A stretch of 64,000 bases of DNA from Thermodesulfobacteriota bacterium (GTDB lineage: Bacteria > Desulfobacterota > Desulfobulbia > Desulfobulbales > SURF-16), in assembly GCA_049323655.1 (NCBI GenBank), contig JBMONO010000006.1, positions 18,953 through 82,952 of the forward strand. The letters are read 5' to 3'. Of this stretch, positions 33,715 through 61,042 are shown piece by piece. The translations under genes were made by a program, and so were the position numbers. The notes below the pieces were generated by a model. It had not been told where the DNA came from. It saw nothing but the letters and a program-made list of their open reading frames with translations, and made no database searches. Within the stretch, counting starts at the first letter, position 1. Each line of letters starts with the position of its first letter.

Positions 33715-34796
33715 TGCTGCCCGAAAAATTCCAGACAGGCTCCGGTTGCGGCGGCAAAGTCCACCCCGCCGCTGATTTCAAGCACCGTAATGTCGGAGAG
33801 CATGGCCAGGTAATTCGCCGGTGAATGATCGAGCACCCCGTCTGTCTCCTCCGGCAGAAAAAAAAGACCGGTTGACTTCATGAAGGCGGGCAGCAGATCC
33901 TGCCGGGCGGCGAGATCAACCCGTTGCACCACGGATTTTCCTTTGTCCCGCCGCCAGTTGAGGATCACCAGGCCCCGCATCGGGGCGGAGAGGGCAAAAC
34001 GGTCGGCGCCGAAGGCCTCATTGATGAAGACGTCGTATTTGTGTTCGAGCTCCCACAGCTCCTCGGTCGGCAGAGCGGCGAAACGCCTTCTTTCATGGAG
34101 CGGGATGACCCGTTGCAGATCCGCGTTATGGAGGGCGGTGCCGGGATTGATCCGCGGCAGCTTGGCCACCCCGAACATGGTGGTCTGGTCTGTCTCCTTT
34201 TTCACCAGCAACCGGTCATTGCTGACAAAATGCGCGCCGCTGCTCATCAGATGCAGGGCCAGGGTCGATTTTCCCATGCCGGAGAAGCCGGCCAGGGCAA
34301 GCCCCTGTCCGGCCAGGGTGACCCCGGCGGCATGGCCGAGCAGGTAGCCCTGATGCAGCTTCCAGGCGATAAAACGGCTGTTGATGAAATTGACAATCTG
34401 ATTTGGGTTGGCGCAGCAGGGCCCCACCGCCAGATGATCCTCGCCGCCGAAGAGAAAGACCATGCCGGTCAGCCGTTTGCGCACCACCCGGCCGTCCGCA
34501 AGATCAAGATACTCCTCCTTGATCTTGGTCTTGCCCGGATCAGGCTCCTTGATGACGAATGTTTCGCGAAAATGCGGTTCCGGCGCCTCATGCACCGTGA
34601 TCCTGATCATCGCCTTTTCCTCGTCCCGGACAACAAAGGGACGGAAATAATGTTCGAGATCAGCGATGAGCTTTGCCGCATTACAGCGCACCTCGATGGA
34701 GCAGCCGGCAAAAAGCAGTCGGATAACATGGCCGGTGGGGTAGCGATGACGGAACTCGCGGACCATCTCGTGACGGTTCAGTGGTGAGTGCTTCAT
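33711..34796 (-). CDS. HprK-related P-loop kinase (type B-like)
   Basis: HAAGVTLAGQGLALAGFSGMGKSTLALHLMSSGAHFVSNDRLLV resembles the HPr kinase/phosphorylase C-terminal P-loop region. ATGA overlap with the ATP-grasp gene (34793-34796). Confidence 0.65.
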   Translation of the reverse strand: MKHSPLNRHEMVREFRHRYPTGHVIRLLFAGCSIEVRCNAAKLIADLEHYFRPFVVRDEEKAMIRITVHEAPEPHFRETFVIKEPDPGKTKIKEEYLDLADGRVVRKRLTGMVFLFGGEDHLAVGPCCANPNQIVNFINSRFIAWKLHQGYLLGHAAGVTLAGQGLALAGFSGMGKSTLALHLMSSGAHFVSNDRLLVKKETDQTTMFGVAKLPRINPGTALHNADLQRVIPLHERRRFAALPTEELWELEHKYDVFINEAFGADRFALSAPMRGLVILNWRRDKGKSVVQRVDLAARQDLLPAFMKSTGLFFLPEETDGVLDHSPANYLAMLSDITVLEISGGVDFAAATGACLEFFGQQ

Positions 34797-35668
34797 TTCT
34801 CCACCCTCCGCCGGACATACTCGACATAGAGCCCGGCCGCATCGATATTGCGCGCCTCGAGAATACCCCGGAAGCCGCCAAAGGCGGAGACCTCGAACAC
34901 CATCGGACCGTCGCTGGTCTCCACCACGTCAACACAGGTAAAGTCGAGCCCGAACGGCGCCTGGGCCCGATAAGCCAGCTCGATGATCTCCGGTCCCGGA
35001 TCAACGGCCTCATACCTGCCGCCGGAGGCGGTGGTGGTATTCCAGGCATCATCCTGCTGGCAGCGGGCATAGGTCGTCATGTACTCGCCGCCGAGAAAAA
35101 CGACGCCGAGATCCCGACCGTTGAGATCGATTTTTTTCTGGATGTACATAATCTTGTTTTTCGCCTTGTATTCCTCGATGACACCCCTGGCGTTGTCCTC
35201 GGCCCGCAGGACAAACATACCGCGCGCCTTGGAGGTGTAGAGCGGCTTGAACACGGCCTCGCCATATTCCCGCACCGCCCGCAGGGCGCTGTCGACGTTT
35301 TCGGTGATGGTCAGGGGCGGCATGGGGATGTTGTTGACCTGCAGGGTAATGGTGCAGGACAGCCGGTCGAGCACCCGCATGATCCGCAGGGGATCGGAAA
35401 AGATCGGCATGCCACGGTCGGCAAGATAGCGCAGGATCTCCAGCCGGTCCATCAGGTCCGGTGAGTAACGGGAGCCGATCTTTTTGATGATGAGGGCGTC
35501 CAGGGCATTGAGTTCGAGACCGTTGCTCGTCACCCGGCCGCTGGGCAGATCGAGACAGATGCGATCCGGTTCGATGAAAATTCTTTCCCCGGTCATCCGG
35601 CCCACCGTATCGGCCAGCAGCTCCGACGACCAGCCGTTTTTTATTCCTATTACTCCTATTCTCGGCAT
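34793..35668 (-). CDS. RimK-like ATP-grasp ligase (GAK-system ATP-grasp)
   Basis: VFKPLYTSKARGM, IMYIQKKIDLNGRDLGVVFLGGEY, NTTTASGG, VDVVETSDGPMVFEVSAFGGF. Start ATG 35668 (MPRIGVIG); alternatives are 35683/35686. Confidence 0.7.
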   Translation of the reverse strand: MPRIGVIGIKNGWSSELLADTVGRMTGERIFIEPDRICLDLPSGRVTSNGLELNALDALIIKKIGSRYSPDLMDRLEILRYLADRGMPIFSDPLRIMRVLDRLSCTITLQVNNIPMPPLTITENVDSALRAVREYGEAVFKPLYTSKARGMFVLRAEDNARGVIEEYKAKNKIMYIQKKIDLNGRDLGVVFLGGEYMTTYARCQQDDAWNTTTASGGRYEAVDPGPEIIELAYRAQAPFGLDFTCVDVVETSDGPMVFEVSAFGGFRGILEARNIDAAGLYVEYVRRRVEK

Positions 35669-35690
35669 GAGTTTGTCCTTCATCATTTAT

Positions 35691-35804
35691 GATGATTTCG
35701 TAAAAGCTGAAAATCTGCCACAGAGACCACAGATGTAACTAATCATAATTAAAGATGTTTTCTATGTCCTCAGTGCGCTCTGTGGTGAAAAAAGACTTTT
35801 TCCG
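35691..35804 (-). repeat. MITE-like intergenic repeat, copy F (inverted orientation), inside the GAK-type operon
   Basis: GATGATTTCGTAAAAGCTGAAAATCTGCCACAGAGACCACAG...CTCAGTGCGCTCTGTGGTGAAAAAAGACTTTTTCCG. Confidence 0.85.
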
Positions 35805-35898
35805 ATTGTATCTTTCATGTACGGTTTTTCTGATCCGCTCCCTATACCTGTCGTGCAGGACATAAGGCCGGGCCGGACCGTCTCTTTCGTGCCAGGCA

Positions 35899-37545
35899 TC
35901 AGTAATACATGATGGCGGTTGGCAGCCGGAAACGCGTCCAGTCGGTGCCTTCGTGGGCCAGCACCTTTTCCAGCAGGAAATGGGCGCGCAAAAACATCTC
36001 GCGGGCAAACTTGGTATTGAGTTCAAAACGGGTCGAGGTGTAGAAGGAGCGGGCCAGAGCGAGGGCCATCCGCGCCTCGAAGGTGGCGTCTTCCTTTTCC
36101 CGGGCAAACTCCTCCGCCATTTCATACATCTTCTTGATCGTCCAGTTGAGCCGGTCGCGCAGCTGCAGCTTGAAGGCGGGCTGGCGGAAATTGGAGATAA
36201 TAAAGACCGAGACATCCTGGACATAGTCGGCATAGCGGGAGCGGTGCAGATCGATGAAATGAATGCGCTCCTTTATTGAGTTATAAAAAATATTGTTGAC
36301 GTTGAAATCGCCATGGATAAAGACGGTAAAGGGCGCCGGCAGCTCCTCCTCGATGAGCAGGCACTTGTCGAGGATCTGTTCAGTGGCATCGATCCGTCGC
36401 TGACCGATGTTCTGCTCCACCCGGTAGAACTCGGGATGGACCTGCAGAACGCTCTCCAGACGGCTCAAAATCTGCTCGACATAGTCGATCTTTCTCGCCC
36501 CCGGCCGCAGGGTGTGATTCCAGACCTCCCGCACCGTGGTCAGCAGCCGGATACAGGCGGCGCTCAACTCCTCGCGGTCGGAGGAGAGAATGACCTCCTC
36601 GTAGGTGCAGCAGGGAATGTATTCGAGCAGCAGGGAGGAGGTGTCGCCGGATTCCTGATAACTGAAAATCTTCGGCACCAGACCGGGAAAAATCTCCGTC
36701 CAGATCTCGATATTTTTCTTTTCGGCCCGGATCTTGTCACGGTTGCCTTCCTTGAAGATGCTGCTGGTGGACTGAGGGAGGAAATGCTCGCCCTGCTCGT
36801 GCTGGAGCTTGCGGATCCGGCAGCCGGATCGGCTGCCGAGAATGGAGGAAAAATCGACCTCGGACAGGGTGCCTCGATAGCCGCTCAAAGTCAGTGACTC
36901 CTCCAGGGCCTGAAACTGATCGATCTTGATCTTTTCCCCGAGGATGGCGAGCAGCAGGGCCTCGCCGATATTGAGCAGGGAATCGCCGATTCGCTCCAGA
37001 TAGCGAAAAATGAAAAGCACGGTGACCAGATCGCCGATATGCCTGCCCTCCCGCATTTCCTCCATGATCTTGACGAAATTTTCCTTGTAATAGGCGTCGA
37101 TCTGATGCTCGGAACGGCAGATCTGCAGGGAGGCGGCCAGATCGCTCTTCTTGAAGGCCGGAATGATTTTCGGCAAAAACTTCTGGATTTCGCTGAGGAT
37201 GATCCGGTAATTGAAGTTCTGGACAAAGGCGACATCGCTGAGATAGCCGACCTGACGGGCAATGTTGACGCAGAAATCGGCGATGCGTTCCAGATTAACG
37301 GCGATGATATGGACCGCGTGAATGGAATCTGTTTCTTTCTTGCTGAGCGGGCTGCCGGCGGTCAGGATATCAAAGCACCACTTCTCGATGATGGTTTTCA
37401 GATTATCGATATAATCATCCTTGCAGATGATTTTCTGCAGATCCTCCTTGTCCCCGGCGGCCAGAAAATCGCTGATGGCATCAACCTGTTTGTCAACCTC
37501 CAGCACCAGGAAATTGAAATTTTCCTCCAGCCCGCGACACAGCAT
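35899..37545 (-). CDS. PhoU-domain / aminoglycoside-phosphotransferase-like kinase fusion protein
   Basis: Two PhoU repeats (NLERIADFCVNIARQV; YLERIGDSLLNIGEALL) sit in the N-terminal half. The C-terminal APH/choline-kinase-like motifs are FIHGDFNVNNIFY and FIDLHRSRYADYVQD. 548 aa. Confidence 0.65.
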   Translation of the reverse strand: MLCRGLEENFNFLVLEVDKQVDAISDFLAAGDKEDLQKIICKDDYIDNLKTIIEKWCFDILTAGSPLSKKETDSIHAVHIIAVNLERIADFCVNIARQVGYLSDVAFVQNFNYRIILSEIQKFLPKIIPAFKKSDLAASLQICRSEHQIDAYYKENFVKIMEEMREGRHIGDLVTVLFIFRYLERIGDSLLNIGEALLLAILGEKIKIDQFQALEESLTLSGYRGTLSEVDFSSILGSRSGCRIRKLQHEQGEHFLPQSTSSIFKEGNRDKIRAEKKNIEIWTEIFPGLVPKIFSYQESGDTSSLLLEYIPCCTYEEVILSSDREELSAACIRLLTTVREVWNHTLRPGARKIDYVEQILSRLESVLQVHPEFYRVEQNIGQRRIDATEQILDKCLLIEEELPAPFTVFIHGDFNVNNIFYNSIKERIHFIDLHRSRYADYVQDVSVFIISNFRQPAFKLQLRDRLNWTIKKMYEMAEEFAREKEDATFEARMALALARSFYTSTRFELNTKFAREMFLRAHFLLEKVLAHEGTDWTRFRLPTAIMYY

Positions 37546-37558
37546 ATCCCCCCCGACC

Positions 37559-37828
37559 TCAGTTCGAAATGGTCATGGGGGTTGCGGAATCACACTTTTT
37601 ATCCTTGCTTTCCACCCATGATATCTTGATGTTGAGTTTATTCATCCCGTCTTTTTTCTTGGCCCGCACCGTGAATTTCATCAGGTCGTCAAGCCGCATG
37701 GAGATCTCGTCGCCATTCGACCTGAGGGTGATCGTCCCCTTTTCAATGGAATCGACCAGCGATTCCAGGTAGGTGCGGATTGTTCCGGCATCCTGCAATG
37801 ATTCGTAATTAAATTTCTGATTCGACAT
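37559..37828 (-). CDS. Small amphi-Trp-domain protein
   Basis: MSNQKFNYESLQDAGTIRTYLESLVDSIEKGTITL...KFTVRAKKKDGMNKLNIKISWVESK. GGAGAGAGGA RBS upstream of ATG 37828. Paralogous to 48557-48835 and 48902-49372. Confidence 0.6.
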   Translation of the reverse strand: MSNQKFNYESLQDAGTIRTYLESLVDSIEKGTITLRSNGDEISMRLDDLMKFTVRAKKKDGMNKLNIKISWVESKDKKCDSATPMTISN

Positions 37829-37868
37829 GGTTCCTCTCTCCTGTAGCCTGTCATGATTCCTTGTCACT

Positions 37869-39038
37869 TCAGCCATTCAGACGTGCCGCGTACTCATCAA
37901 TGATGTTGCCTCTGTCCATCTCGGCGACGATCAGTTTTTTCCGGATGGCCAGATCGTCCCAGACCGGCTGCACCCCGATCTCCCGGGCCATCTTCTGCTC
38001 ATCCTGTTCGTCCGCCGGTTTGACCTTTTCCCCCATGTGAGTGTCATCGCCGGTGAAAACCAGAAGTCGCCGGGCAGACGGGCCAAGATGCCTGTTGCGG
38101 TTGATCACCGTGGTGATGAGAAAATCGGTGAACTCCCGGGACTGCGGATTCCACACCTCGTAGCCGTCAACATCGTATTCGGCCAGGAGAATCGGCCAGA
38201 ACTGTTCAGGATGGGGAATGACGATGCCGCCGCCGAGGGAGCGCGCCTCCTCGATGATCTCCGAGGTGCGGTAAAAAAAGGCCGGAGAAAAATCCTTTTT
38301 CACCTCCAGCTTCACCGCCCGCAGAAAGGTCTGGGCCCGGTTGATAAAGGTGTTGCCGTACTCCTCCCGCAGGGTATTGAAAAAATCCCGCAACAGCTTG
38401 TTCTTGACGTTATCCTGGGGAATGGCGTCGAGATTTTCCTCAAGCAGGGTGTTGACCTTGGCCGTATGGATGCGGACGAATTCAATCAGCTGCTCGTCGG
38501 CCCCGGTTTCGGCGGCCGCCTTCTCCAGCCGCTCCGCCACCGGCCGGATGATGGTGTGAATAAAATCAAAAAGCTGGGAGGCCCGGTATTTGCGGGTATG
38601 TTCGAGGGCGGCCCGCAACACCGAGGCATTGGCCAGGGCGGCGGTGCGGAAATGGAGCAGCAGCTGCACCTTGCGGTTAAAGCCGCGGGAATAACAGTCC
38701 ACCTCGACCCCGCTGTAGTCGCCGTAACTCATCAGCACATTGTGCTGGGTGGGAATGATCAGCGATTTTTTCCTGTTGGGAAAGGTGGCGCAGATCCGCT
38801 GCTCGATGAGTTCCATCGGCACATATTCCGGATGCCAGTGGACGGCCAGCACCTCCTGCTGCCGCGGCAGGATAAGGGCCGGCGTCGTTACCAGATCAAT
38901 CTGCTCACCGGTCAGCTCAATGGAAACGACGTGAAAAAACCGTTCCCGATCCTTTTCCGTCACCTCTTCGGTCAGGCCGTCCCAGACCGGGACGGCCTCA
39001 TTTTCCGGCGATTTTTTTTTCACGAGTTTCATGGGCAT
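37869..39038 (-). CDS. Conserved hypothetical protein with PHP-like metal-phosphoesterase motifs
   Basis: AVHWHPEY (HxH), GGIVIPHPEQF, EVWNPQS and FTGDDTHMG resemble PHP motifs split by a helical insert. 389 aa. Confidence 0.35.
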   Translation of the reverse strand: MPMKLVKKKSPENEAVPVWDGLTEEVTEKDRERFFHVVSIELTGEQIDLVTTPALILPRQQEVLAVHWHPEYVPMELIEQRICATFPNRKKSLIIPTQHNVLMSYGDYSGVEVDCYSRGFNRKVQLLLHFRTAALANASVLRAALEHTRKYRASQLFDFIHTIIRPVAERLEKAAAETGADEQLIEFVRIHTAKVNTLLEENLDAIPQDNVKNKLLRDFFNTLREEYGNTFINRAQTFLRAVKLEVKKDFSPAFFYRTSEIIEEARSLGGGIVIPHPEQFWPILLAEYDVDGYEVWNPQSREFTDFLITTVINRNRHLGPSARRLLVFTGDDTHMGEKVKPADEQDEQKMAREIGVQPVWDDLAIRKKLIVAEMDRGNIIDEYAARLNG

Positions 39039-39050
39039 CTGCTCGTCGTT

Positions 39051-39593
39051 TCATTTGTAGCGGGCATGACACTCCTTCTTCATCCCGCGCAGGACGGCAT
39101 ACTGGGCGTTGACCGCCGCATAATCACCGGTGGCATAAAGCCGGCCAAACTCTTCGCTGGCCGCGCTGTAAGCCGGATAACAGTCGTCACCATAACCTGG
39201 ATAGCCGACCATCAGCGCCGAATCGGCAAGAAAATTCTTTACCATGGCGGGTTCGGGCAATCTGCCCTCCGCCAGCATCGCGCCCATGGCCTTGAAGTTG
39301 CGGTCCATCCGTTTCTTGAAGGAAGTATACTTGCTCTGTTCAGCCCCTGCCTGGTCTGCATCAGGGCCATCGGCGCCGTCATCCGCCCCGTGCTTGATCT
39401 TGATCTTGAACTGAATAAACTCCCCCCGCCTTTTGAGGCCGATCTTCAATTTCTGGAATTCATCCAGACTGATATCAAGATCCTGCAAGGGTGAGCCGTT
39501 ATTGCGCTCGATGGCATCTGCCATCGAGCGCAGGAAAGCGGCGGCCTCTATGACGGAAAACATTCTTTCCAGTTTGTGTGCCCGACCGGTCAT
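39051..39593 (-). CDS. amphi-Trp-like N-domain protein with an XXXCH-type C-terminus (GAK-system XXXCH protein-like)
   Basis: The N-half (AAAFLRSMADAIERNNGSPL...EFIQFKIKIKH) parallels the amphi-Trp proteins. The C-terminus is ...AVLRGMKKECHARYK. GGAG lies 6 nt upstream of ATG 39593 (track start 39635). Confidence 0.55.
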   Translation of the reverse strand: MTGRAHKLERMFSVIEAAAFLRSMADAIERNNGSPLQDLDISLDEFQKLKIGLKRRGEFIQFKIKIKHGADDGADGPDADQAGAEQSKYTSFKKRMDRNFKAMGAMLAEGRLPEPAMVKNFLADSALMVGYPGYGDDCYPAYSAASEEFGRLYATGDYAAVNAQYAVLRGMKKECHARYK

Positions 39594-39836
39594 ATTTACT
39601 CCGTGACAATTCTGATTGTAAGAAAAACGCACCATTCCGCTGTGCGAAGACTTTCAATTACAATACACCAAAAATAGCCCGGTGATTGTTAGATTCAGGT
39701 TAATTTTCCGTTAGCGTTTCATCCCGCCAGAACGGCCTGGAATCCGATCCGCACTGATAAAAAATTAACACAATCCTCACCAGATCCCGACACAGGGGAG
39801 ATAAAGTGGGAATGCACCCACACCACACGGAGGATA

Positions 39837-42233
39837 ATGTGCATGGACCATGCAATCTTTGCCCGCCAGAACAGCGCGGATGCACCGGCGCCGACCCTCG
39901 ACGACTGCCTCGCCCTGCTGGCAATCGACCCCGCCGATGTCAGACAGCTGCCCTTCATCCGGGGTGATGTCACCGCCGGCACGGAAAATGAGCTGCAGGT
40001 GGCGGTGGCGGGGAACAGAAACGAGGTCGACCTGCCGCTCACCATCGAGGCCTCAAGCTACTACGCCAACATCTTCCGCCGGGCCAAATCCGGGGACATG
40101 TCGTGGCAGACCGGCCGCAACCTTGACCGGTATCTCACCGAAAACAGGGACAATATCTGGGAAAATTCCTGGGTGCGTTTTCCCTATCACCGGCTGAACG
40201 ACACGGCGCGCGCCGTGCTGCATGACGACCTGCGGGCCGACAAAAGCACGACAAACGGCAGTCTGCGCAATGACAGCTCGCAATTTTTCTTCCATGCCAA
40301 GGGCGAGCCCTGGCTGCGAATACCGGTGAGCTACCTGCTCAAACTCGCCCTGGCCGATCTGCTGGGTGAAAGCGTTGCCCTGGGCGAAGGCCTGCTGGTC
40401 GCCGGGCGCCGGCTCATGGATCACTTTCTCAACGACAACACCTCGCCGGAGACCACTTCCTTTTACGTCGTTGCCGGCAGAAACAGCGCAACCATCGGCA
40501 ACGGCGTGGCCCGGGAAACGGCGAAACGCTACCTGTTCAGCCAGTTGCTGCTTTCCTACGCCAACCGGAAATTCGGCATCGAGGAACACGGCCAGCAGGC
40601 CCTGCTCTTCTTCTCCCCTCATCCGCCCATCCGGCAGCGCCAGCTCAATGCCGCCATCTCCGACTCCTTCTACCGTGAACTGTTCATGAGCCCCTGCCTG
40701 TCCGGCTGGGACAACGGCGAGGAAAAACATCGGTACATGGCGCTCTGCCATCAGGTGCTGAGCCGCAGTCATATGAACGCGGTCATGAAGCTGCGCGAGG
40801 CCGGCATCGTCACCACCAATCTCGTCGTCCTCCCCCACACCTCCAACATCAGCCTGGCCAACAACGGCACCCATGTCAGCCTGGGCAGCAGAAAACTGAC
40901 CGGGCTCATGCAGGATCCGGGATCCGGCTTTACCGCGGCCCATGAAAAATATCTCGGCGATCTGGGGGCCAAGATCATGGAGCACTTTCTGCCGCTCTTT
41001 GTCGGCACTTACTCCGCCGCCCCCTATCGCCTGGCCTTCGAGGATTTCCACCCGGAAACGGCGCTCGGCTTTCTGCCCCACCAGCTCGATTACACCCATT
41101 TGCGCATGTTCTGGCGACGCTGGAAAAAAAAGGCACGCAACCGCCTCTGCGGTCATGCCCTCACCCCCTTCGGCCCTTTGCGTGTCGATACCTTGCTGCG
41201 TCGAATTTTTCGCCTGCATGGCGATTTTCTGCCGGATTTTCGTCTGATGGATTATCCGGTCTCCCTGCTTTCCACCCAGACCAACTGCTGCCAGAACGGC
41301 CTGCTCGGCAACGATGAGCGGCTCAAGGAGGACCTCGACTCTCTTGGGGTTTTTGACAAACGGATGGCTCTTTATCAGCTCATCCGGCTGCGCCAGCATC
41401 GGGTCATGGGCTTCACCGGCTTTGAGGCGCGCTTCTACTCGCTCTTTTCGGGCTTTGCCGATGATCTCGGCCAGGCCGCGGATCTGCAGATGCTGCTCAC
41501 CGCCCTGACCTACAAACTCATTGTCCGCGATCGCCTCGACCATAACCGCATCCCCGGCATTCCCTTTGTTGAAAGCGAACGCCGTCAGATCCTCTTTGCC
41601 GCCGCCGTCGGGCTGCCCACCTTTTTCGTCCGCCGCGACACGACCAACGCACTGCTGCTCCGCATCCTCCGCCTGACCGAAAACGTGCGGCCCAGCCGCC
41701 GTTATCCCGGTTATCTTCGGGTTTCTATCCGGGAATACCTGCTCGCTCTGCTGCGTTTCATCCAAGCAGAGGGAGCGGATCTGATCGATCTGCTGGCCAT
41801 GCAGGAAACCCTTGCCGATCTCGACAACCGGCTGCGCCATCCCGACCAGGGGGTCTGCGGCCGGTTGGTGCGGGCCATCACCGGCTCCTCTTCGCCGGCG
41901 CGGGAGGCCCCCTTCACCATGGCCGCCCATGATTTCAACGTCGCGGCGGAAGGCTATTACCGCAGGGATCTGCGTCTGGCGCAGATAAAAGAGGCATGGG
42001 ACATTTTCGCAGCCGATGTGCGCGCCATGGCCGATGGCATCACGTTGCTTCCTCTGGAATACCGCACCCTGCTCTATGAACTCACCAATGACAAGGATCC
42101 GGACCGCTTTCTCCGCCAGTGCGCTGACGAGCTGAGCGCAGAGTCGCTCCCGCTCTCCCGGACAACCACCCTCCTTCGCCTCCTGCTGCTCAGTGTCGCC
42201 ACTGACGCCAAAAGAGAGGCAAGCGGAACGTAA
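39837..42233 (+). CDS. Large conserved hypothetical protein (798 aa), no domain recognised
   Basis: Ordinary soluble-protein composition, GGAGG RBS, start ATG 39837 or 39843. Notable block: HTSNISLANNGTHVSLGS. The 753-aa antisense ORF has low-complexity G/A/R composition and is rejected. Confidence 0.6.
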   Translation: MCMDHAIFARQNSADAPAPTLDDCLALLAIDPADVRQLPFIRGDVTAGTENELQVAVAGNRNEVDLPLTIEASSYYANIFRRAKSGDMSWQTGRNLDRYLTENRDNIWENSWVRFPYHRLNDTARAVLHDDLRADKSTTNGSLRNDSSQFFFHAKGEPWLRIPVSYLLKLALADLLGESVALGEGLLVAGRRLMDHFLNDNTSPETTSFYVVAGRNSATIGNGVARETAKRYLFSQLLLSYANRKFGIEEHGQQALLFFSPHPPIRQRQLNAAISDSFYRELFMSPCLSGWDNGEEKHRYMALCHQVLSRSHMNAVMKLREAGIVTTNLVVLPHTSNISLANNGTHVSLGSRKLTGLMQDPGSGFTAAHEKYLGDLGAKIMEHFLPLFVGTYSAAPYRLAFEDFHPETALGFLPHQLDYTHLRMFWRRWKKKARNRLCGHALTPFGPLRVDTLLRRIFRLHGDFLPDFRLMDYPVSLLSTQTNCCQNGLLGNDERLKEDLDSLGVFDKRMALYQLIRLRQHRVMGFTGFEARFYSLFSGFADDLGQAADLQMLLTALTYKLIVRDRLDHNRIPGIPFVESERRQILFAAAVGLPTFFVRRDTTNALLLRILRLTENVRPSRRYPGYLRVSIREYLLALLRFIQAEGADLIDLLAMQETLADLDNRLRHPDQGVCGRLVRAITGSSSPAREAPFTMAAHDFNVAAEGYYRRDLRLAQIKEAWDIFAADVRAMADGITLLPLEYRTLLYELTNDKDPDRFLRQCADELSAESLPLSRTTTLLRLLLLSVATDAKREASGT

Positions 42234-42243
42234 GGGAGAAACA

Positions 42244-43245
42244 ATGCACCAGTATATTGAACGAACCAACCGACAGGTCATCACCGAGGAGCTGTTCGGG
42301 GACAGAATCATCACCTTTCTCTATTCCCGGGGCCGGGAAAAGGCGCCCACCCTCTTTCGCCTGGCCACCGGCGCCCGGATGTCGAGTCTGCTCGGTTATC
42401 TGAACTTTGACCTGCCGCTGGCCCGCACCATCATCGGCAACCGCCGTTTTCTCCTGAAAAACGGCGTCCGGGCCGAGGAATGCCTGATCCCGCCGGAGGG
42501 ATTGACCACGCCGCGGGCGATCTTTGAACGCAAGATTCGCTACTGGAAATACCGGCCCATGCCGGAGGAGGATGACGCCATTGTCTCACCGGCCGACGCC
42601 CGCATGCTCTGCGGTTCGCTCGACGAGGAGAGTCTCTTCTTTCTCAAGGGAAATTTTTTCCGTTATGAAGAGCTGCTGGGAACGGCGAAAAGGATCTGGC
42701 TCAGCGCCTTTCGCCAGGGCGATTGCGCCATTTTCCGGCTGACCCCGGACAAATATCATTACAACCATCTGCCGGTCAGCGGTTATATAGTGGATTTCTA
42801 CGAAATAAGCGGCGCCTACCACTCCTGCAACCCCGGCGCGGTGGTGGAAATGGTCACCCCTTACTCCACCAACAAACGGGTGGTGACCATTATCCAGACC
42901 GATGTGCCGGGCGGCAGCCGGGTCGGCCTGGTCGCCTTTATCGAGGTGGTGGCCATGATGATCGGCGAGGTCGTCCAGTGTTACAGCGACGCCATCGGCT
43001 ACGAAAACCCGGTGGCCATGGAGTCAGGCCTGTTTGTCAAAAAAGGACAGCCGAAAAGCCTGTTCCGGCCGGGCAGCAGCACCGACATCGTTCTCTTTCA
43101 GAAAGGCCGGATGACCTTTGCCGAGGATCTTGTCGCCCAGATGCGGCGTCGCGATGTCATGAGCCGCTTCACCATGGGTTTCGGCGGTCAGTTGGCCGAG
43201 GTCGAGGTTCAGGTCCGCTCCCTGATCGGCAGAAAAAATTCCTAA
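42244..43245 (+). CDS. Phosphatidylserine-decarboxylase-family (pyruvoyl-dependent) protein, long form
   Basis: IVSPADARM, FRLTPDKYHYNHLPVSG and LFRPGSSTDIVLF (GSS self-cleavage site) are PSD hallmarks. AGGGAG RBS upstream of ATG 42244. Confidence 0.7.
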   Translation: MHQYIERTNRQVITEELFGDRIITFLYSRGREKAPTLFRLATGARMSSLLGYLNFDLPLARTIIGNRRFLLKNGVRAEECLIPPEGLTTPRAIFERKIRYWKYRPMPEEDDAIVSPADARMLCGSLDEESLFFLKGNFFRYEELLGTAKRIWLSAFRQGDCAIFRLTPDKYHYNHLPVSGYIVDFYEISGAYHSCNPGAVVEMVTPYSTNKRVVTIIQTDVPGGSRVGLVAFIEVVAMMIGEVVQCYSDAIGYENPVAMESGLFVKKGQPKSLFRPGSSTDIVLFQKGRMTFAEDLVAQMRRRDVMSRFTMGFGGQLAEVEVQVRSLIGRKNS

Positions 43246-43252
43246 TAAAGAC

Positions 43253-43382
43253 AAACCCGTAAAAAGTCTTTTTTCACCACAGAGCGCACCGAGGACACAG
43301 AGAAAACATATTTAGATACAATTAGTTATCTCCGTGCACCCTGCGGTCTCCGTGGTTAATTTTCAGTTTTCACGAAATCATC
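43253..43382 (+). repeat. MITE-like intergenic repeat, copy G, between the PSD-like and Lgt-like genes
   Basis: AAACCCGTAAAAAGTCTTTTTTCACCACAGAGCGCACCGAGGACACAGAGAAAACATATTTAGATACAATTAGTTATCTCCGTGCACCCTGCGGTCTCCGTGGTTAATTTTCAGTTTTCACGAAATCATC. Confidence 0.9.
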
Positions 43383-43399
43383 AAAAAAAGGTGATCATC

Positions 43400-44458
43400 A
43401 TGACAAACGGCCTTTTTCTCTCCCTGCTCTTTTGCACCTTCGCCCCGCTGCTTTTTCTGGCCTGCCGGGTACTGCCCGGTGAAAAATGGCAGATCGCCGC
43501 CGCCATCCCCACCCGCAAAGAGATGATGGACGGTCAGTGCCGCTGGCGCGGCTGCAACCTCACATTTTACGGTATCCTGCTCGCCACCGGCGGCTGCCTC
43601 GGCGTCCTGGTCTTTGCCTTTCTTCTCGCCGCGGCCGGCCATGCCGGAACCACCATCATTTTCCTCAGCGGCGTCATCCTCTTTTTTTCCGTCATTGCCG
43701 CAAAAGTCATCGCACGAGTCGTGGAAAAGAAAAAGAACACGCTGACCGTGGCCGGCGCTGCGACAACCGGCCTCTTTCTGGCCCCGCTTGCCGTATTCCT
43801 CCACAACCGCTTTCTTGTCAGTGGCAGCGATCCAATCCTGCTCATGCCGGTGATGGCGGCACTCTCCACCGGTTATCTCATCGGCGAAGGGACAGGCAGG
43901 CTGGCCTGTCTCAGTTTCGGCTGCTGTTACGGCAAACCGCTGGCAACAACGGGAAAATGGATGCAACGGTTGCTTACCCCCATTGCCTGCACCTATCAGG
44001 GCGAGACCAAAAAAATCTCCTATGCCTCGGGCTTAAGCGGAGTGCCGGTGGTGCCGGTGCAGGCGCTGACCTCGTTTTTCTTTGTCGTCACCGGTCTTGT
44101 CGGCATCCATCTCTATCTGAACGGTCGTTCCGCCTCTGCCTTTGGCCTGACCGCCATTTTTGCCATGACATGGCGGCTGCTGTCGGAACGATGGCGAGCC
44201 GACTATCGGGGCCAGAGCCGGTTCAGTGCCTACCAGATCATGGGCCTCATCAACATCGTTTTCATTCTCTTTCTCCTGCTGATTCTTCCGGCAACGCCGG
44301 TGAAAACCCTTCGCTTCCAGGAAGGGCTGGCCGCCCTGTGGACCCCCTGGACCCTGCTCTCTTTCCAGGGGTTGTGGCTTGCCCTCTTTCTGCGAACCGG
44401 TCTGAGCCGGGTCACCGGCTCAACCATCTCGTTTCATGTCAGGCACGAAGAAATCTGA
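43400..44458 (+). CDS. Lgt-family (prolipoprotein diacylglyceryl transferase-like) polytopic membrane protein
   Basis: Multi-TM protein. GRLACLSFGCCYGKPL parallels the Lgt GR(L/I)GNF..G...G(R/K)P motif, and VPVVPVQALTS parallels hPtQLYE. Start ATG 43400; the track start at 43334 lies inside repeat G. Confidence 0.55.
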   Translation: MTNGLFLSLLFCTFAPLLFLACRVLPGEKWQIAAAIPTRKEMMDGQCRWRGCNLTFYGILLATGGCLGVLVFAFLLAAAGHAGTTIIFLSGVILFFSVIAAKVIARVVEKKKNTLTVAGAATTGLFLAPLAVFLHNRFLVSGSDPILLMPVMAALSTGYLIGEGTGRLACLSFGCCYGKPLATTGKWMQRLLTPIACTYQGETKKISYASGLSGVPVVPVQALTSFFFVVTGLVGIHLYLNGRSASAFGLTAIFAMTWRLLSERWRADYRGQSRFSAYQIMGLINIVFILFLLLILPATPVKTLRFQEGLAALWTPWTLLSFQGLWLALFLRTGLSRVTGSTISFHVRHEEI

Positions 44459-44473: not shown

Positions 44474-44604
44474 AAACCCGTAAGATTTTTTTTTTCGCCA
44501 CAGAGCGCGCTGAGAGCGCAGAGAAAAAATCTTTAATACAATCAGTTATCTGTGGGTGTTCTGCGGTCTCTGCGGGTAATTTTCAGTTTTCACGAGACCA
44601 TCAC
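44474..44604 (+). repeat. MITE-like intergenic repeat, copy H
   Basis: AAACCCGTAAGATTTTTTTTTTCGCCACAGAGCGCGCTGAGAGCGCAGAGAAAAAATCTTTAATACAATCAGTTATCTGTGGGTGTTCTGCGGTCTCTGCGGGTAATTTTCAGTTTTCACGAGACCATCAC. Confidence 0.9.
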
Positions 44605-46559
44605 GCTTCGAGGAGATGCCTGTCAACCGCCAGACGGCAGGTTCCCTTTTCCAGGCAGCCCAGGCAGGCGTTTTCAACAAGCGTGAGGGGAGAGCGGCGG
44701 CTGTTGCCCATCCAGGCAATAGCGAATCTGCTGTGGAGATTGCCCTTGGCCGTCCTTTTCAGAATGGCGATGGAGCGGGAGACGTCTTCCATTGTATAGA
44801 GACGCGGACCGGCCTCGATCAGCAGTACCGCAGCGCTCAGACTGAGCAGGCCGAAGCGTTTTTTTTCACCATTGCGATCAGTTGCCAGGATAAACCCCTG
44901 CTCCCGCTCTCCATGGTCATAGAGAGTCGCGATAGCGTGATTGAATTTGTCGATAATCTCTTCCACCTCTGAACAGAGTCGCGCCATTGCCCCCTTGGCA
45001 AGCACAGCGCCGGCGAAAAAATCATCGCCGCCGAGATGGCCGGCAAAATTCTCCTTGTCTGTGGCAAAAAAAGAATTTTTCAGGAGATCGGCAAACATAA
45101 GAATGGCACGATCGCCCCGGCGAAAGCCGTAATGATCATTAAAGGGCTTGAAATCGTTAAAATCGAAATAAATCAGCCCGTATCCGGTGGCCACGTCCGT
45201 GTAAGCCCTGGTCAGATAATCGACGATCTGGCTGTTGCCTGGCATTTTTGACAGAGGATTCTGCTCCCGGGCAAGGGACAAATTTTTTTCATGAAGTATC
45301 TTTATGATGGCCGCGCTGGTCAGGAAGCCAACGTAACGCCCATCACTGGTCAGGATAATACCTTCCGGATCACGGGTCAGGGAAAACACCTCCAGCAGCT
45401 TTTCAATGGAGCGGGTCTTTTCCATGACCGGGCAGAACGAGACGAAATTCTGGACGTTTTTGCACAGGCTCTTGTTCAGCAGCAGGTTGCGGCCGTATTG
45501 CGTGTAGACATAATCCTTGAGAAATTTTTCCCGGATGATACCGAGCGGTTCACCGCCCGGATTCAAGAGAGGAAAGAACGTCCGCTCCTTGTTCTGACGG
45601 AACTTTTTCAGAACGATCTCCAAGCCGTCCCGGGTATACTGATCAGGTTCCAGGACCACCGGCGGGATGTATTCGATATTGGCGGCGAGAATCTTTTCAT
45701 CACTGTTATCGGCGCGTCTGTCCTTGCGGCCGAGCACGGCGATTTCCTCATAGACAAATCGGATATCCGACAAAATGACGGTCGGCTTCTGGATGAGATA
45801 ACCCTGGACATAATCACAGCCGATTTCCTTGCAGGCGAAATACTCCCGTTCCGTTTCCACCCCTTCGGCGATCACCATACTGCCCAGGATATGGGCAAGA
45901 TCAACCACCTTGGCGACAAAAAGCTTCTTTTTGGCGTCGGTGGCAATGTCATTGATGAAAAAGCGATCGATCTTGACGAAATTCGGCTCCGCGTAGTAGA
46001 GCAGTTGCAGACCGGAAAATCCGGAGCCGAAATCGTCGATGGCGACTTTCAACTGAGACGTCCGCCGTTTCCGGCAGTAGCCGCAAAATGCCTCATAATC
46101 GTCAATGGGCTGCTGTTCCGAAATTTCCAGACAGATCATGCCCGGTTCCACACCACAGGCAGACACCAACCCGGAGAAATTTTCACACAATTCGTCGGGG
46201 TTGGCCAGAATGCGGTTATCGAGATTGAGAAAGAGAATAATCCGCCCATTCTGCGGCAGGAGCAGATATTTGCGGACCGCCTTTTCCCGGAGCAGGAGCT
46301 CGAAAAAGGCAAGCTCACCGTCGCGATAGGCAGCATCGAACATCTCGCCGATCGTGGAGAAACCGGCGGCGGCCCAGTTGCGAACCAGGGCCTCACAGCC
46401 GAGACAGACCCCGGTGTGGATATTGACGATGGGTTGAAAGGCATAGTCAAGCTTCTCAACGATGGCCCGCCAATCGACCCCGCCACTGGGATATGACGTC
46501 TGCCGGCAAAAAGCATGATCGTCACCTGCAAGAATCGCCTCCCCAACAATCAGTGCCAT
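44601..46559 (-). CDS. EAL - CBS pair - GGDEF-like (GGDDF) c-di-GMP signalling protein
   Basis: EAL domain: FQPIVNIHTGVCLGCEALVR, VAIDDFGSGFSG. GGDEF domain: DFNDFKPFNDHYGFRRGDRAIL and HLGGDDFF. The stop codon lies in the end of repeat H. Confidence 0.8.
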   Translation of the reverse strand: MALIVGEAILAGDDHAFCRQTSYPSGGVDWRAIVEKLDYAFQPIVNIHTGVCLGCEALVRNWAAAGFSTIGEMFDAAYRDGELAFFELLLREKAVRKYLLLPQNGRIILFLNLDNRILANPDELCENFSGLVSACGVEPGMICLEISEQQPIDDYEAFCGYCRKRRTSQLKVAIDDFGSGFSGLQLLYYAEPNFVKIDRFFINDIATDAKKKLFVAKVVDLAHILGSMVIAEGVETEREYFACKEIGCDYVQGYLIQKPTVILSDIRFVYEEIAVLGRKDRRADNSDEKILAANIEYIPPVVLEPDQYTRDGLEIVLKKFRQNKERTFFPLLNPGGEPLGIIREKFLKDYVYTQYGRNLLLNKSLCKNVQNFVSFCPVMEKTRSIEKLLEVFSLTRDPEGIILTSDGRYVGFLTSAAIIKILHEKNLSLAREQNPLSKMPGNSQIVDYLTRAYTDVATGYGLIYFDFNDFKPFNDHYGFRRGDRAILMFADLLKNSFFATDKENFAGHLGGDDFFAGAVLAKGAMARLCSEVEEIIDKFNHAIATLYDHGEREQGFILATDRNGEKKRFGLLSLSAAVLLIEAGPRLYTMEDVSRSIAILKRTAKGNLHSRFAIAWMGNSRRSPLTLVENACLGCLEKGTCRLAVDRHLLEA

Positions 46560-46580: not shown

Positions 46581-48425
46581 TTAATTGACCGGCACATAAC
46601 CTGCGCCAAGCAGATGCAGTCTGGCCCTGGAAAAATCAAGCAGCGCCGTTAACTCACCGGCGATTTCCCCGGAACGATTCCGGACAGTGCCGGAAAGATC
46701 AAGGCCGCTGCTTGCCGCGTCATTGACCAGGGCAATGTCGGCCGAGACATCCCGGGTGTCGGCCGCCGTCTGATCCGTCAGCTCCGAGATCCTTCCAGCC
46801 AGATTTTCCTGGGTCCGGACCGCGGCGCTGATGATTGTCGTCACCTCGGTCAGATGATGAACCAGTTGCTCGATACTGCCAAGGTTGCCGCTCGTGGTGG
46901 CGGCTGCCTGTTCGATTGCCGCGATTTTCGCCATCACCGAGGCGGTGGCCTTTTCCGTTTCCTGGGAGAGTACCTTCACCTCTGAGGCGACAACGGCAAA
47001 GCCCTTGCCCGCCGCTCCGGCCCGCACCGCCTCGATGGTGGCGTTCAGGGCCAGCAGCTTTGTCTGTTCGGCAATGGAACGAACGATTTCGATGATACCG
47101 TGGATCTCCCTGGTCGCCTGCCCGAACCGTTCGAGATCCTGGCGCGACTTACGGGTTCCGTCGATCATGGTGTCAATAATGCCGGACTGGGCGCCGATCT
47201 GCCTGGTGATGTCGGCAACGGCAACCAGCATCTGCCGGGACGAGGAGGAAACCGTCTCGGTGTTGGCTGCGGTATGCTCCGCGATGCGCGCCACCCGTGC
47301 CGCCTGTTGCCTGGTGGTCGAGGCGGCCTGGTGCTGATTGCCGGCCAGGGAAACCAGTTCCTGGGCCATGCCTTCCACCCTGGCGACGACCGCCGAGGTC
47401 TGCTGCACCAGCTCATTGATAATACCTTCCTGATACTGCCGGCGCTGCTCGGCCTCCTGCTTGACAAGCTGTTTGGCCTGTTCCTCCTGGCGCAGCCTGT
47501 TCAGGGTCTCCTTGAAGTTACCAATGGCGCCGGCCAGAATACCGATCTGATCGGAACGACCGCCATAGGGCACATCCGGGAAATGGCCGGCGCGAATCCG
47601 ATCAATGATGGTGGTGAGGGTCAACAGCGGCTTTTCGACGATGACACGGATCAGAAAAGACAAGACAATGAGATTGCTGATAACCGCGCAGAGGCTGATG
47701 AACAGATTCATCCGGTTCTGCCGTGTCCGCAGCTCATCGAGCTGCGCCTCGGCAGCGGCAATATGCTCCTGTTGCCGGAGAATCCCGGTGCGGGTCTGTT
47801 CCGCCTGCAGAGCCTCATCGGCCAGCAGCGCCCGTAAGGAAGAGATCTTGTCCTGAAACTGTTGCAGACTGCCGGCCGATGCCTGCTGCTGGTCGATGAT
47901 TTCGGTAACCACGGCTGCGTCGGCCGACGGATTGCCGCTGGTGAAACGGGTACGGGAAACGGTGCCGGTGAAGGTGTTGTCCGGGGAGAAGACGCCATGG
48001 GCAACGACAATGGCGTTGCCCTCGACGAGGGCGACAACCTTGCCATTGCCCAGGTCACGCCGCTGCTGGCGGGAATAGAGTGCGGCGTACTGTTCCCGGT
48101 TTTCGATTTTCTCCTCCCCGCTGATCGGGAAACGGGATTTGAGTTCGGTCAGGATCCGATCGGCGTGATCCTCCTGAAAAAAATCACCCAGCCCGAGATA
48201 GCGTTCCTGCAGACTGAAAATCATTTGGCGCTGGCTGTCGTTCAACTGCGCGTAGATAGTGAGCAGCTCGCCGGTCGCATTCTCGATCTTCCCTTGACCA
48301 TATCGATTGGCCAGGAGGATGGCGCCGATAAAGACATTGGTAACAATGGCCACCCCGACCAGAATCTTCATGCCGACGGAAATACGCCGATCACCCTTTC
48401 GCCACTTTGCCAGTACCGTCGCCAT
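46581..48425 (-). CDS. Methyl-accepting chemotaxis protein
   Basis: N-terminal TM, periplasmic region, second TM, HAMP, then the conserved MCP signalling hairpin ([38 protein letters not shown]). Confidence 0.88.
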
Positions 48426-48556: not shown

Positions 48557-48835
48557 TCACATCCTGGCATTGGCGCCGGGCCGGATCTTCAGGGAATCAC
48601 TGTCTTCAGCCGGTTCCCGCTCCCAGGCCAGCTCAAGGGTAATCCGGTTTTTGTCCCTGCTCTGCTTGACTTCAATCTCCAGTTTCACCTCGGTCGGAAT
48701 ACGCATCATGACCGCATCGTTGCCGCATTCAACCATGACCTGGCCGGTTTTCATGCCGGCAGCGATATTTTCCAGAAACGTGACGACTTCAGTGGTTGCC
48801 AACATTTTTTTGGCCGAGATCTTATTGCTGCTCAT
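48557..48835 (-). CDS. Small amphi-Trp-domain protein
   Basis: TTEVVTFLENIAAGMKTGQVMVE...EVKLEIEVKQSRDKNRITLELAWERE. AAGGAG RBS. Confidence 0.6.
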   Translation of the reverse strand: MSSNKISAKKMLATTEVVTFLENIAAGMKTGQVMVECGNDAVMMRIPTEVKLEIEVKQSRDKNRITLELAWEREPAEDSDSLKIRPGANARM

Positions 48836-48901: not shown

Positions 48902-49372
48902 TCATTTGTGCGCTGCCGGCGTGTCCTTGCCCTTTGCCTTGGCATCGTCCCTGGCCGCTCCCTTGTCATCAGCCTTGGCCGCCTCCTTCACCTCGGGCGT
49001 CTTTTCCGGGACATCACATTTTTTCGCGGCCGGGGCCGCCTCCTGTTTCTCTTCACCCCCTTCGCTCGTGCCGCAGGGCTGCCCCGGCGGCACGAGTCGC
49101 GCCTCCGGCACCCGGGAGGAGATTTTCAGCTTCGCCTCCTCGGAAAGCGGTTCCTCTTTCCAGGACAGCTCGATACTCACCTTCTGCTTGCCCTTTTTGA
49201 TCGCCGCCTCGACCTCGACCTCGACATACTCGCCAGGGGTGAGACAGATGCACTCCTCACCCTTTTCAATGCAGATCGTCTTTTCCCGGTAGCTTTTGGC
49301 CAGCTCATCAAGCAGCGTAGCGGCGGCGGCAAAGTCCAGTGTTCCCTCGATCGCCAATTTCTCTTTTGTCAT
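48902..49372 (-). CDS. amphi-Trp-domain protein with a K/A/E/P-rich low-complexity tail
   Basis: FAAAATLLDELAKSYREKTICIE...EVEVEAAIKKGKQKVSIELSWKEE, then a charged tail. GGGAGG RBS upstream of ATG 49372 (track start 49393). Confidence 0.6.
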   Translation of the reverse strand: MTKEKLAIEGTLDFAAAATLLDELAKSYREKTICIEKGEECICLTPGEYVEVEVEAAIKKGKQKVSIELSWKEEPLSEEAKLKISSRVPEARLVPPGQPCGTSEGGEEKQEAAPAAKKCDVPEKTPEVKEAAKADDKGAARDDAKAKGKDTPAAHK

Positions 49373-49451
49373 GCCCTTTTCCTCCCTGTTCATTTTTTTA
49401 GTTTATTGAATCCCTTACCCTGTTATCCCGGATCAGGTCCTCCTCATCCGC

Positions 49452-51724: not shown

Positions 51725-51867
51725 TTTTTCGCTCCTTTTTTTTGCTGTATGTTTTATATGACAATGAAAAACAATCGCCCCACTGGCGTCCACATTTTGA
51801 ACGAAAGCGAACCGATGTCGCATTTCCAGCAGCACACGGCCACTTTGTTCCCAGCTAAAGCAATGAC

Positions 51868-53688: not shown

Positions 53689-53735
53689 CCCCGACCGTCC
53701 CGTCCCGACGCAAAGAGGGCGAGAACGAATGAAAC

Positions 53736-55580: not shown

Positions 55581-55589
55581 GGAATCTCC

Positions 55590-57248: not shown

Positions 57249-57262
57249 TGGGAGGAGGTCAC

Positions 57263-58651: not shown

Positions 58652-58664
58652 AGGGAGAGAAACG

Positions 58665-61025: not shown

Positions 61026-61042
61026 GCCGAACACCGCTCATC

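Follow-up and report, generated by a model that had tools for sequence, protein, structure and literature searches.

Among the adaptations to scarce phosphate, the replacement of phospholipids by lipids free of phosphorus is a major one, and the substitutes described in anaerobes are mainly glycolipids and ornithine lipids. The known phosphate-starvation pathways include PlcP/Agt for glycolipids, BtaA/BtaB for diacylglyceryl-trimethylhomoserine (DGTS), OlsBA/OlsF for ornithine lipids and the synthesis of sulfoquinovosyl diacylglycerol (SQDG); to our knowledge, none of them combines thioether formation by an Lgt-type enzyme with an ATP-dependent amide ligase and a pyruvoyl decarboxylase, and we know the Lgt fold only from protein lipidation. 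A cluster of three genes with these predicted chemistries (hereafter the trio) is present in a stretch of 64,000 nucleotides from a Thermodesulfobacteriota bacterium of the order Desulfobulbales (GenBank assembly GCA_049323655.1, contig JBMONO010000006.1, positions 18,953 to 82,952), and this whole stretch is referred to below as the window. The trio is comparable to the listed pathways in the Pho-controlled replacement of phospholipids proposed for it, and its proteins have no homology to their enzymes. It consists of the following genes:

39837–42233, + strand: U798, an open reading frame (ORF) of 798 amino acids (aa), possibly 796 aa; predicted cytoplasmic protein with the fold of glutamate–cysteine ligase (GCL) and carboxylate-amine ligases, predicted to form an amide bond
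42244–43245, + strand: PSD-like gene, 333 aa; pyruvoyl-dependent decarboxylase, paralogue of the housekeeping phosphatidylserine decarboxylase (PSD)
43400–44458, + strand: LGT-like gene, 352 aa, nine predicted transmembrane helices; distant paralogue with the Lgt fold

In the sulfate reducer Desulfatibacillum alkenivorans under phosphate limitation, phosphatidylethanolamine (PE), phosphatidylglycerol (PG) and cardiolipin are almost fully replaced by glucuronosyl and BACys lipids (Ding et al. 2024, PNAS, PMC11181052). In that paper, BACys stands for 'N-butyramide cysteine glycerol', the head-group fragment is C7H13O3N2S+ (m/z 205.064), and the lipids are specific to phosphate limitation and built on diacylglycerol, acyletherglycerol and dietherglycerol cores, the same as those of the phospholipids; no genes are proposed there for their synthesis (PMC11181052). 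BACys lipids were not mentioned in the other literature searched.

The trio is in all likelihood a Pho-regulated module of lipid or head-group remodelling, and lipid head-group chemistry, the general idea of the original prediction made from the window alone, holds. The more specific prediction, that under the control of PhoB the trio converts phospholipid to a phosphorus-free glycerolipid with sulphur and nitrogen and with the composition of BACys, is given about even weight, and the identification of the trio with the missing biosynthetic pathway of BACys is advanced tentatively, with a confidence a little short of even. On this identification, the trio provides precise candidate genes for a class of lipids discovered only recently, and the module is widespread; it has no annotation, and no description of it turned up in the searchable literature.

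For the comparison, 80 related loci were fetched, relatives of the window genes were located by tblastn and all ORFs were clustered; the counts of gene order use the 69 loci with enough downstream sequence. The PSD-like gene is directly 3′ of U798 in 66 of the 69 loci and the LGT-like gene directly 3′ of the PSD-like gene in 60, while four further Trichlorobacter/Geobacter loci have a PHP-GT4 glycosyltransferase gene (GT4, glycosyltransferase family 4) and an unknown gene inserted between the latter two. The three co-directional genes originally proposed to diverge from the neighbouring GAK operon are real, and their order recurs in 60–66/69 loci. Homologues of U798 number more than 2900, all annotated as 'hypothetical', with 50–66% identity across orders, and are encoded in at least 581 species-level genomes; the public annotation of the other two proteins is phosphatidylserine decarboxylase and prolipoprotein diacylglyceryl transferase. 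Carriers of the trio belong to Desulfobulbales, Geobacterales, Syntrophales, Desulfobacterales, Brocadia and SAR324, and include Desulfococcus multivorans and Desulfonema ishimotonii, which are of the same order as Desulfatibacillum alkenivorans. Other carriers available in culture are Trichlorobacter lovleyi, Pelobacter propionicus, Thiovibrio frasassiensis and Citrifermentans bremense, whereas Desulfovibrio alaskensis G20 has no trio. The sequence blocks FRPGSSTD of the PSD-like protein, GRLACLSFGCCYGKPL and PVQALTS of the LGT-like protein and NNGTHVSLGS of U798 are invariant or near-invariant in the respective families. The trio is a conserved, co-inherited module of anaerobic bacteria.

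The PSD-like protein matches Pfam PS_Dcarbxylase with 127 bits and the NCBIfam model PRK00723/NF001941 with 137 bits against a cut-off of 371, aligned over 18–329; by this score it is not the equivalog that turns phosphatidylserine (PS) into PE. It shares with Psd and with PsiD, an amino-acid decarboxylase of the PSD family, the PS_Dcarbxylase domain, the GS(S/T) self-cleavage site and the Asp and His residues, and with PSD of the clostridial type a long N-terminal region, NF001941 being aligned end to end. The alignment to E. coli PSD covers the catalytic Asp (PAD) and His (YHxxH), and in 64 members of the family the motifs SPAD, RLTPDKYHYNH and PGSSTD show a conservation of 95% or more. The retained Asp, His and Gly-Ser-Ser residues indicate an active enzyme, so the protein is, to judge from these residues, a self-processing pyruvoyl decarboxylase and a second copy beside the housekeeping PSD. 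This agrees with the original reading of a second PSD with an intact self-processing site, and the housekeeping gene, formerly given the end 15964, is listed here to 16222:

15320–16222: housekeeping short PSD, Pfam 163 bits

In the pyruvoyl mechanism of the PSD family, the substrate needs a free alpha-amino acid moiety, and PSD itself converts PS to PE. In contrast to Psd, the PSD-like protein reaches about a third of the score that the equivalog cut-off demands, has a fixed place in an operon beside the genes for a ligase and an Lgt-like enzyme, and has as its predicted substrate a gamma-glutamyl or S-glyceryl-cysteine head group instead of PS.

The relationship of the LGT-like protein to Lgt is seen in the Pfam family LGT (PF01790), which it matches with 29.9 bits against a cut-off of 24.9 over profile positions 9–239 of 240, and most of its homologues carry a precomputed PF01790 match. 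Its sole NCBIfam match, NF000778, has 22 bits against a cut-off of 334; neither phmmer nor the family profile recovered Lgt 5AZB from the PDB, hhalign against Lgt aligned the R239/E243 segment only, and tblastn with E. coli Lgt did not detect the LGT-like genes. The same tblastn search found a canonical lgt in the Candidatus Brocadia locus L031 (6130–6957, − strand; 31% identical to E. coli Lgt, E 1e-29), about 3 kb from the trio, so the LGT-like protein is an additional paralogue; it is distinct from bona fide housekeeping Lgt, with which the original prediction had allowed that it might group. The AlphaFold2 model (predicted local distance difference test, pLDDT, 91.9) has E. coli Lgt (5azb) as its only confident Foldseek match (E 3.6e-3, probability 1.0, TMt 0.53), the next having probabilities of 0.21 or less, which bears out the Lgt resemblance noticed at the outset.

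The residues Y26, H103, R143, N146, E151, G154, R239 and E243 are reportedly catalytic and essential in Lgt, and N146 is known as essential in the E. coli enzyme. Equivalents of Y26, R143, G154, R239, E243 and R246 are kept as Y58, R168, G179, R260, E264 and R267, the phosphate-binding arginines R143 and R239 among them, whereas H103 is replaced by V, N146 by C171, E151 by C176 and Y235 by T/A; three Cys are invariant. The common residue set suggests a phosphoglycerolipid donor and a similar transfer chemistry. Compared with E. coli Lgt, the protein has 16% identity, an extra N-terminal transmembrane helix and an inverted charge bias: the K+R count is 17.1 on the face of the active site and 1.7 on the other face in 57/57 members, and in E. 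coli Lgt this is reversed. The positive-inside rule predicts an active site on the cytoplasmic side of the membrane, together with the two soluble partners, and the predicted acceptor is a small molecule or a lipid head group, not an exported lipobox protein. Modelling and residue comparison together suggest a protein with the Lgt fold that probably works in an Lgt-like manner and lies outside the housekeeping Lgt group.

U798 had no sequence match in Pfam, NCBIfam or the PDB (phmmer); 18 family members gave no Pfam match even at E = 10, the family profile found nothing in the PDB, hhalign against E. coli GshA was not significant, and a profile search of 1.84 billion cluster representatives returned the family itself only, the best 150 containing no distant relative. 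The family, a compact one, falls into 865 clusters at 50% identity, of which many are fragments. The AlphaFold2 model, built with 92 homologues, has a pLDDT of 86 and a predicted template-modelling (pTM) score of 0.91, and the Foldseek comparison with the PDB, which had been suggested as a check of the original prediction, gave as its top eight matches GCL (GshA; 3nzt, 2d32, 1v4g), the bifunctional GshF (3ln6, 3ln7), the Pup ligase PafA (4bjr) and YbdK (1tt4), with probabilities of 0.85–1.0. The invariant residues of the family, GTE50NE52 (GTE50xE52), E109, NGTH346xS and FE530xR532, are located on predicted strands, in an arrangement typical of the glutamine-synthetase-like ligases. Compared by eye and without superposition, GTE50NE52, a GxExE motif on the first strand, parallels E27/E29 of GshA, NGTH346xS parallels SGVH150YNFS, the NNGTHVSLGS block would correspond to the metal-binding His strand of GshA, and FE530xR532 would be the ExR strand. 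The likeness to GCL (GshA/GshF), YbdK and PafA is one of the catalytic-domain fold, and the predicted model matches only these; unlike them, U798 exceeds them by about 300 residues, carries a large insertion and a helical domain at its C-terminus, and has no detectable sequence or profile similarity to them. U798 is predicted, with moderate confidence, to represent a new family of ATP-dependent carboxylate-amine ligases. The earlier statement that the protein has no placeable motif is upheld as regards family matches, and NNGTHVSLGS, then singled out as its most conserved-looking block, is near-invariant; the fold, of the GCL/glutamine-synthetase type, and the Pho regulon had been missed. More than 2900 highly conserved 'hypothetical' proteins would in this way receive a fold and a testable reaction.

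The genomic context of the trio points to the Pho regulon. The genes pstSCAB/phoU occur within 10 kb in 28/80 loci (22/54 among loci of at least 15 kb) and, if PhoR-like, PhoB-like and PsiE proteins are counted too, 48/80 loci have such a neighbour within this distance. Recurrent neighbours are PstB, PstC/A, PstS and PhoU, all above curated cut-offs, and PhoB-like and PhoR-like proteins; others are PsiE, a Zn-dependent phospholipase C, PHP-GT4, an alpha/beta hydrolase and DUF2062. A position weight matrix (PWM) of the Pho box was derived with a Gibbs sampler from the pstS upstream regions of the related loci only, which yielded CTGTCATCATATTGTAACAT-like forms in Syntrophales and Geobacterales and CTAATAAAATTCTAACAA-like forms in Desulfobulbales. 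With this PWM, 77 regions upstream of U798 scored far higher than 892 control upstream regions (Mann–Whitney p = 1.3e-11), the controls including genuine pho genes. Pho boxes are found 74–111 nt upstream of U798, and the best PWM sites are concentrated on the coding strand between −78 and −111. The two top PWM matches of the window are both in the gap of about 200 bp between U798 and the divergent XXXCH-domain gene, the first gene of the GAK operon:

39752–39783, + strand: Pho-box-like element facing U798, TGAT-N7-TAAC-N7-TCAC, half-sites 11 bp apart, 54–85 nt before the ATG
39688–39713, − strand: triple TAAC-N7 Pho box facing GAK/XXXCH, the top PWM match of the window

The element facing U798 has PWM scores of 14.9 and 12.3, which rank 2nd and 8th in the window, and it is 14/20 identical to ATCTAACACGACCCTGACAG, found at −97 of U798 in the Desulfurivibrio-group loci L004, L007, L009 and L013. 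The pattern TAAC-N7-TAAC has four matches in the window, where 0.13 would be expected, and these form two triple arrays, the one at 39688–39713 and another in the phoB/pst intergenic region at 56426–56451 (the pst promoter). With Pho-box-like arrays facing in both directions, the gap does resemble the shared control region that had been proposed. A scan of this region for sigma-70 promoters found none, which fits PhoB-dependent promoters and is not evidence for them; no expression data on induction by phosphate limitation via PhoB were found in the literature. To judge from neighbours and upstream sites, the trio appears to be under PhoB control and switched on by phosphate starvation. Further downstream, the window contains its own set of Pho genes:

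52240–62073, mixed strands: Pho block, 8–18 kb downstream of the trio, with PstC, PstA and PstB above curated cut-offs
52240–53688: PIN-PhoH (PhoH-like) protein
53736–55580, − strand: PhoR-like kinase
55590–56351, − strand: PhoB-like regulator
57245–62073, + strand: PstC, PstA, PstS-family protein and PstB

The part of the window from 32 to 62 kb, with the GAK operon, the trio and the pho/pst block, resembles a 'Pho island'.

In the proposed pathway, phospholipid would be converted on phosphate starvation to a phosphorus-free glycerolipid containing sulphur and nitrogen. U798, whose structural counterparts, the GCLs, make gamma-Glu-Cys, would form an amide of the gamma-glutamyl-cysteine type at the expense of ATP; the PSD-like enzyme would remove the alpha-carboxyl next to the free alpha-amine, turning the gamma-glutamyl into a 4-aminobutanoyl group; and the LGT-like enzyme would, at the cytoplasmic face, transfer the diacyl- or alkyl-glyceryl moiety from PG to the Cys thiol, giving a thioether and freeing glycerol phosphate, the phosphate of which could be reused. 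The product would be S-(diradylglyceryl)-N-(4-aminobutanoyl)cysteine with the head group C7H14N2O3S. Alternatively, the PSD-like enzyme might decarboxylate S-diacylglyceryl-cysteine before ligation, so two isomers fit the enzymes, 4-aminobutanoyl-cysteine, with the alpha-carboxyl of the glutamyl lost, and gamma-glutamyl-cysteamine, with S-diacylglyceryl-cysteine decarboxylated first; the former is the isomer nearest to the published 'butyramide + cysteine'. The analysis establishes the conservation of the trio, its setting in the Pho regulon with the Pho boxes, the predicted folds and the retention of catalytic residues; the substrates, the product, its identity with BACys and any order of the steps are what we infer.

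A phosphorus-free thioether aminolipid had been predicted from the three chemistries and the Pho control before the paper on BACys was found. By our own arithmetic, gamma-Glu-Cys (C8H14N2O5S) minus CO2 gives C7H14N2O3S, and the S-linked cation C7H13N2O3S+ has the value 205.064, as published. BACys is a lipid and not a gene family, and the points of agreement are its occurrence in Desulfobacterota, its specificity to phosphate limitation and the head-group composition. BACys would have its cores in common with the phospholipids because the glyceryl moiety would come from existing PG, and phosphate would be economised through the release of glycerol phosphate. Genes for an Agt-like GT4 and a phospholipase C, which recall PlcP/Agt, adjoin the trio in Geobacterales loci, and a co-occurring GT4 glycosyltransferase would account for the glucuronosyl lipids.

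Several observations weigh against the trio being the BACys pathway or against parts of this assignment. The published structure is tentative, being based on tandem mass spectrometry (MS2) only, and is named and drawn as N-butyramide cysteine, an isomer of the predicted 4-aminobutanoyl-cysteine thioether (PMC11181052). Desulfatibacillum alkenivorans was not among the 240 homologues listed, nor was Desulfatibacillum among the top 120 from a Desulfonema query, the genome itself being unsearched. The fold matches of U798 are weak (E 3e-3 to 7e-2, TM-score 0.3–0.5) and come from a single method with no support from sequences or profiles. The LGT-like protein has no counterparts of N146, H103 and E151, and because of this its chemistry may differ from that of Lgt. 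In two Syntrophales loci, L071 and L079, U798 occurs with neither the PSD-like nor the LGT-like gene within 10 kb. The strongest Pho box of the window faces the GAK operon and the one facing U798 is weaker, and a weak, terminator-like hairpin (43341–43355) is present in a repeat between the PSD-like and LGT-like genes.

A remodelling of lipids on phosphate starvation that leads to a product other than BACys, e.g., a PS-like lipid decarboxylated and then amidated at the amine (of the N-aminoacyl-PE or S-diacylglyceryl-cysteamine type), or the recycling of phospholipid head groups, would fit the Pho context and the three enzyme classes equally well, and gamma-glutamyl-(S-diacylglyceryl)cysteamine does not differ from the predicted product in elemental composition. 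This explanation is considered rather unlikely: a phosphorus-containing product would not spare phosphate, the match to the composition of BACys would be a coincidence, and among the other phosphate-starvation lipids described we know of none for which precisely this set of enzymes (amide ligase, alpha-amino-acid decarboxylase and thiol-directed diacylglyceryl transferase) is required. The synthesis of a soluble dipeptide or thiol of low molecular weight (e.g., decarboxylated gamma-Glu-Cys), with the membrane protein either exporting it, anchoring it or being an unrelated partner, would suit the GCL fold of U798, and PSD-family enzymes can use free amino acids, a PsiD-like chain being among the PDB matches; it is made improbable by the fixation of the LGT-like gene in the operon (60–64/69 loci), by the retained lipid-phosphate-binding arginines of Lgt, by the full-length membrane-PSD architecture of the PSD-like protein (NF001941 over 18–329) and by the lipid enzymes among the neighbours (phospholipase C, GT4 and an Aas-like acyltransferase). 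That the trio contains ordinary duplicates, a spare PSD and a housekeeping Lgt beside an unrelated hypothetical gene, is what the public annotation of the two proteins would imply, and it is hardly credible given scores far under the NCBIfam equivalog cut-offs (137 vs. 371 and 22 vs. 334), the failure of E. coli Lgt to find the LGT-like genes by tblastn, the canonical lgt that L031 has besides, the housekeeping PSD in the window and the co-inheritance of the trio across phyla.

The original prediction had also linked the trio to the GAK operon, with lipidation of the Cys of the XXXCH protein as a speculative role of the Lgt-like enzyme and, by extension, the trio as an accessory of GAK. The GAK operon of the window (32464–39635, − strand) is complete, with genes for a CofD-like protein, an HprK-related kinase B, an ATP-grasp protein, a PhoU-APH kinase, an amphi-Trp protein, a 389-aa protein and XXXCH, and its families are all above the NCBIfam cut-offs:

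39051–39635, − strand: XXXCH-domain gene, TIGR04358, 77 bits; first gene of the divergent GAK operon and a neighbour outside the trio

The divergent arrangement, with a common intergenic region and Pho boxes in both directions, and the adjacency of GAK in several lineages and arrangements are in favour of such a link: the two are divergent in L001/L002, as in the window, and in L071/L079, convergent in L006 and co-directional in the SAR324 locus L078. In L071 (10001–12085) and L079 (10001–12076), U798 alone, beside pst/phoR genes, is divergent from the adjacent GAK operon, a single pattern that hints at a link between U798 and GAK independent of the trio. A check for conserved linkage found GAK genes within 10 kb in 5/80 related loci (6/81 including the window); in the other 75 there is none and the trio is intact, so the trio, by the refuting condition set in the original prediction itself, is not a GAK accessory, and GAK was rejected as its functional partner by co-occurrence. 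The LGT-like gene is mostly found with no XXXCH gene at all, its product has lost N146, H103 and E151 and is cytoplasm-facing by charge bias, and the Cys of the XXXCH protein is C-terminal and has no lipobox. Lipidation of this Cys is therefore very improbable. The co-location is accounted for if both are Pho-regulon modules, and they are most simply read as separate modules of this regulon, sometimes adjacent, which here share a divergent control region of the PhoB type. The PhoU domain of the GAK kinase and the Pho boxes of GAK operons suggest that GAK is a phosphate-starvation system, which would place this enigmatic system in the Pho regulon. A triple TAAC-N7 array is also found upstream of XXXCH in L006 (21818–21843, − strand), where GAK is not divergent from U798, and in L078 a TAAC-N7-TAAC site (14512–14526, + strand) precedes the GAK genes. 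Searching the literature for Lgt homologues, for the GAK system and for this combination of enzymes gave nothing relevant.

If the trio does make BACys, at least 580 anaerobic species, from Desulfobacterota, Geobacterales, Syntrophales, anammox Brocadia and SAR324, would possess the pathway, and the genes would be a marker for a strategy of substituting sulphur and nitrogen for phosphorus across sediments, aquifers and anammox reactors. The tentative BACys structure would be refined to a thioether-linked 4-aminobutanoyl-cysteine, with its head group built by a new family of GCL-fold ligases and a PSD paralogue. The Lgt fold would have been recruited for bulk membrane lipid synthesis in an Lgt-type enzyme of inverted topology, which would transfer the diradylglyceryl group of PG to a small-molecule thiol at the cytoplasmic face.

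The gene starts in the window were revised by comparison with homologues. The U798 ORF as originally called stands, and a 99%-identical homologue begins two codons later (796 aa). The PSD-like ORF opens at GTG 42193, and the start conserved in the family is ATG 42244 (MHQYIER), 10 nt past the stop of U798. The LGT-like ORF opens at GTG 43334 and its conserved start is ATG 43400, which gives 352 aa in place of the 353 aa originally called; the database protein P0270, which is 100% identical, is equally long. The divergent gap between U798 and XXXCH measures 201 bp with the XXXCH start at ATG 39635, and the 243 bp given previously apply if XXXCH starts at 39593. Long antisense ORFs opposite the trio (e.g., 40053–42314, − strand, 753 aa) were taken as artefacts of the GC-rich sequence and set aside.

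The repeat copy that had been placed between genes 2 and 3 is present there:

43247–43383: interspersed repeat copy between the PSD-like and LGT-like genes, about 125–135 nt, with internal inverted arms and a weak terminator-like hairpin

It is probably a lineage-specific insertion; in the related loci the gap between these genes has a median of 100 nt. Copies of these repeats (families D1–D5) are at 2887, 5200, 16017, 31618, 32305, 35758, 43247, 44479, 51862, 61135 and 62597 of the window; they are intergenic, of about 60–135 nt each, have the inverted arms CACCACAGAGCGCAC...GTGCGCTCTGTGGT, and resemble miniature inverted-repeat transposable elements (MITEs) or repetitive extragenic palindromic (REP) sequences. 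The LGT-like gene is flanked by two copies, each with a weak terminator-like hairpin (43341–43355 and 44560–44576).

In the Geobacterales loci L024, L025, L028, L044, L046, L067, L068 and L076, the trio is within a larger set of lipid-remodelling genes, which includes a PHP/GT4 fusion (817 aa), the Zn-dependent phospholipase C, DUF2062, a DUF3108-like protein, PsiE and an unknown secreted protein of 732 aa. In D. multivorans (CP019913.2, L084:14700–17591, − strand), an Aas-like gene encoding a 963-aa protein with AMP-binding, PP-binding and acyltransferase domains is convergent to the trio. In the window, a 652-aa EAL-GGDEF protein is encoded next to the trio (44601–46559, − strand); its ORF cluster (c5) is found near the trio in 21/80 related loci, upstream or downstream, and this recurrent neighbour hints at a link of cyclic di-GMP to the phosphate-starvation response. 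Two more amphi-Trp proteins are encoded outside the GAK operon (48557–48835 and 48902–49393, both − strand), beside a gene for a methyl-accepting chemotaxis protein (46581–48425). A 665-aa protein (49907–51904, − strand), divergent from phoH, has only a weak match to CehA/McbA metallohydrolases (PHP-like), and it may be a phosphate-scavenging phosphoesterase. A GT4 glycosyltransferase of 367 aa (28483–29586, − strand), encoded about 3 kb past the far end of the GAK operon at 32464, could be an Agt-type glycolipid synthase.

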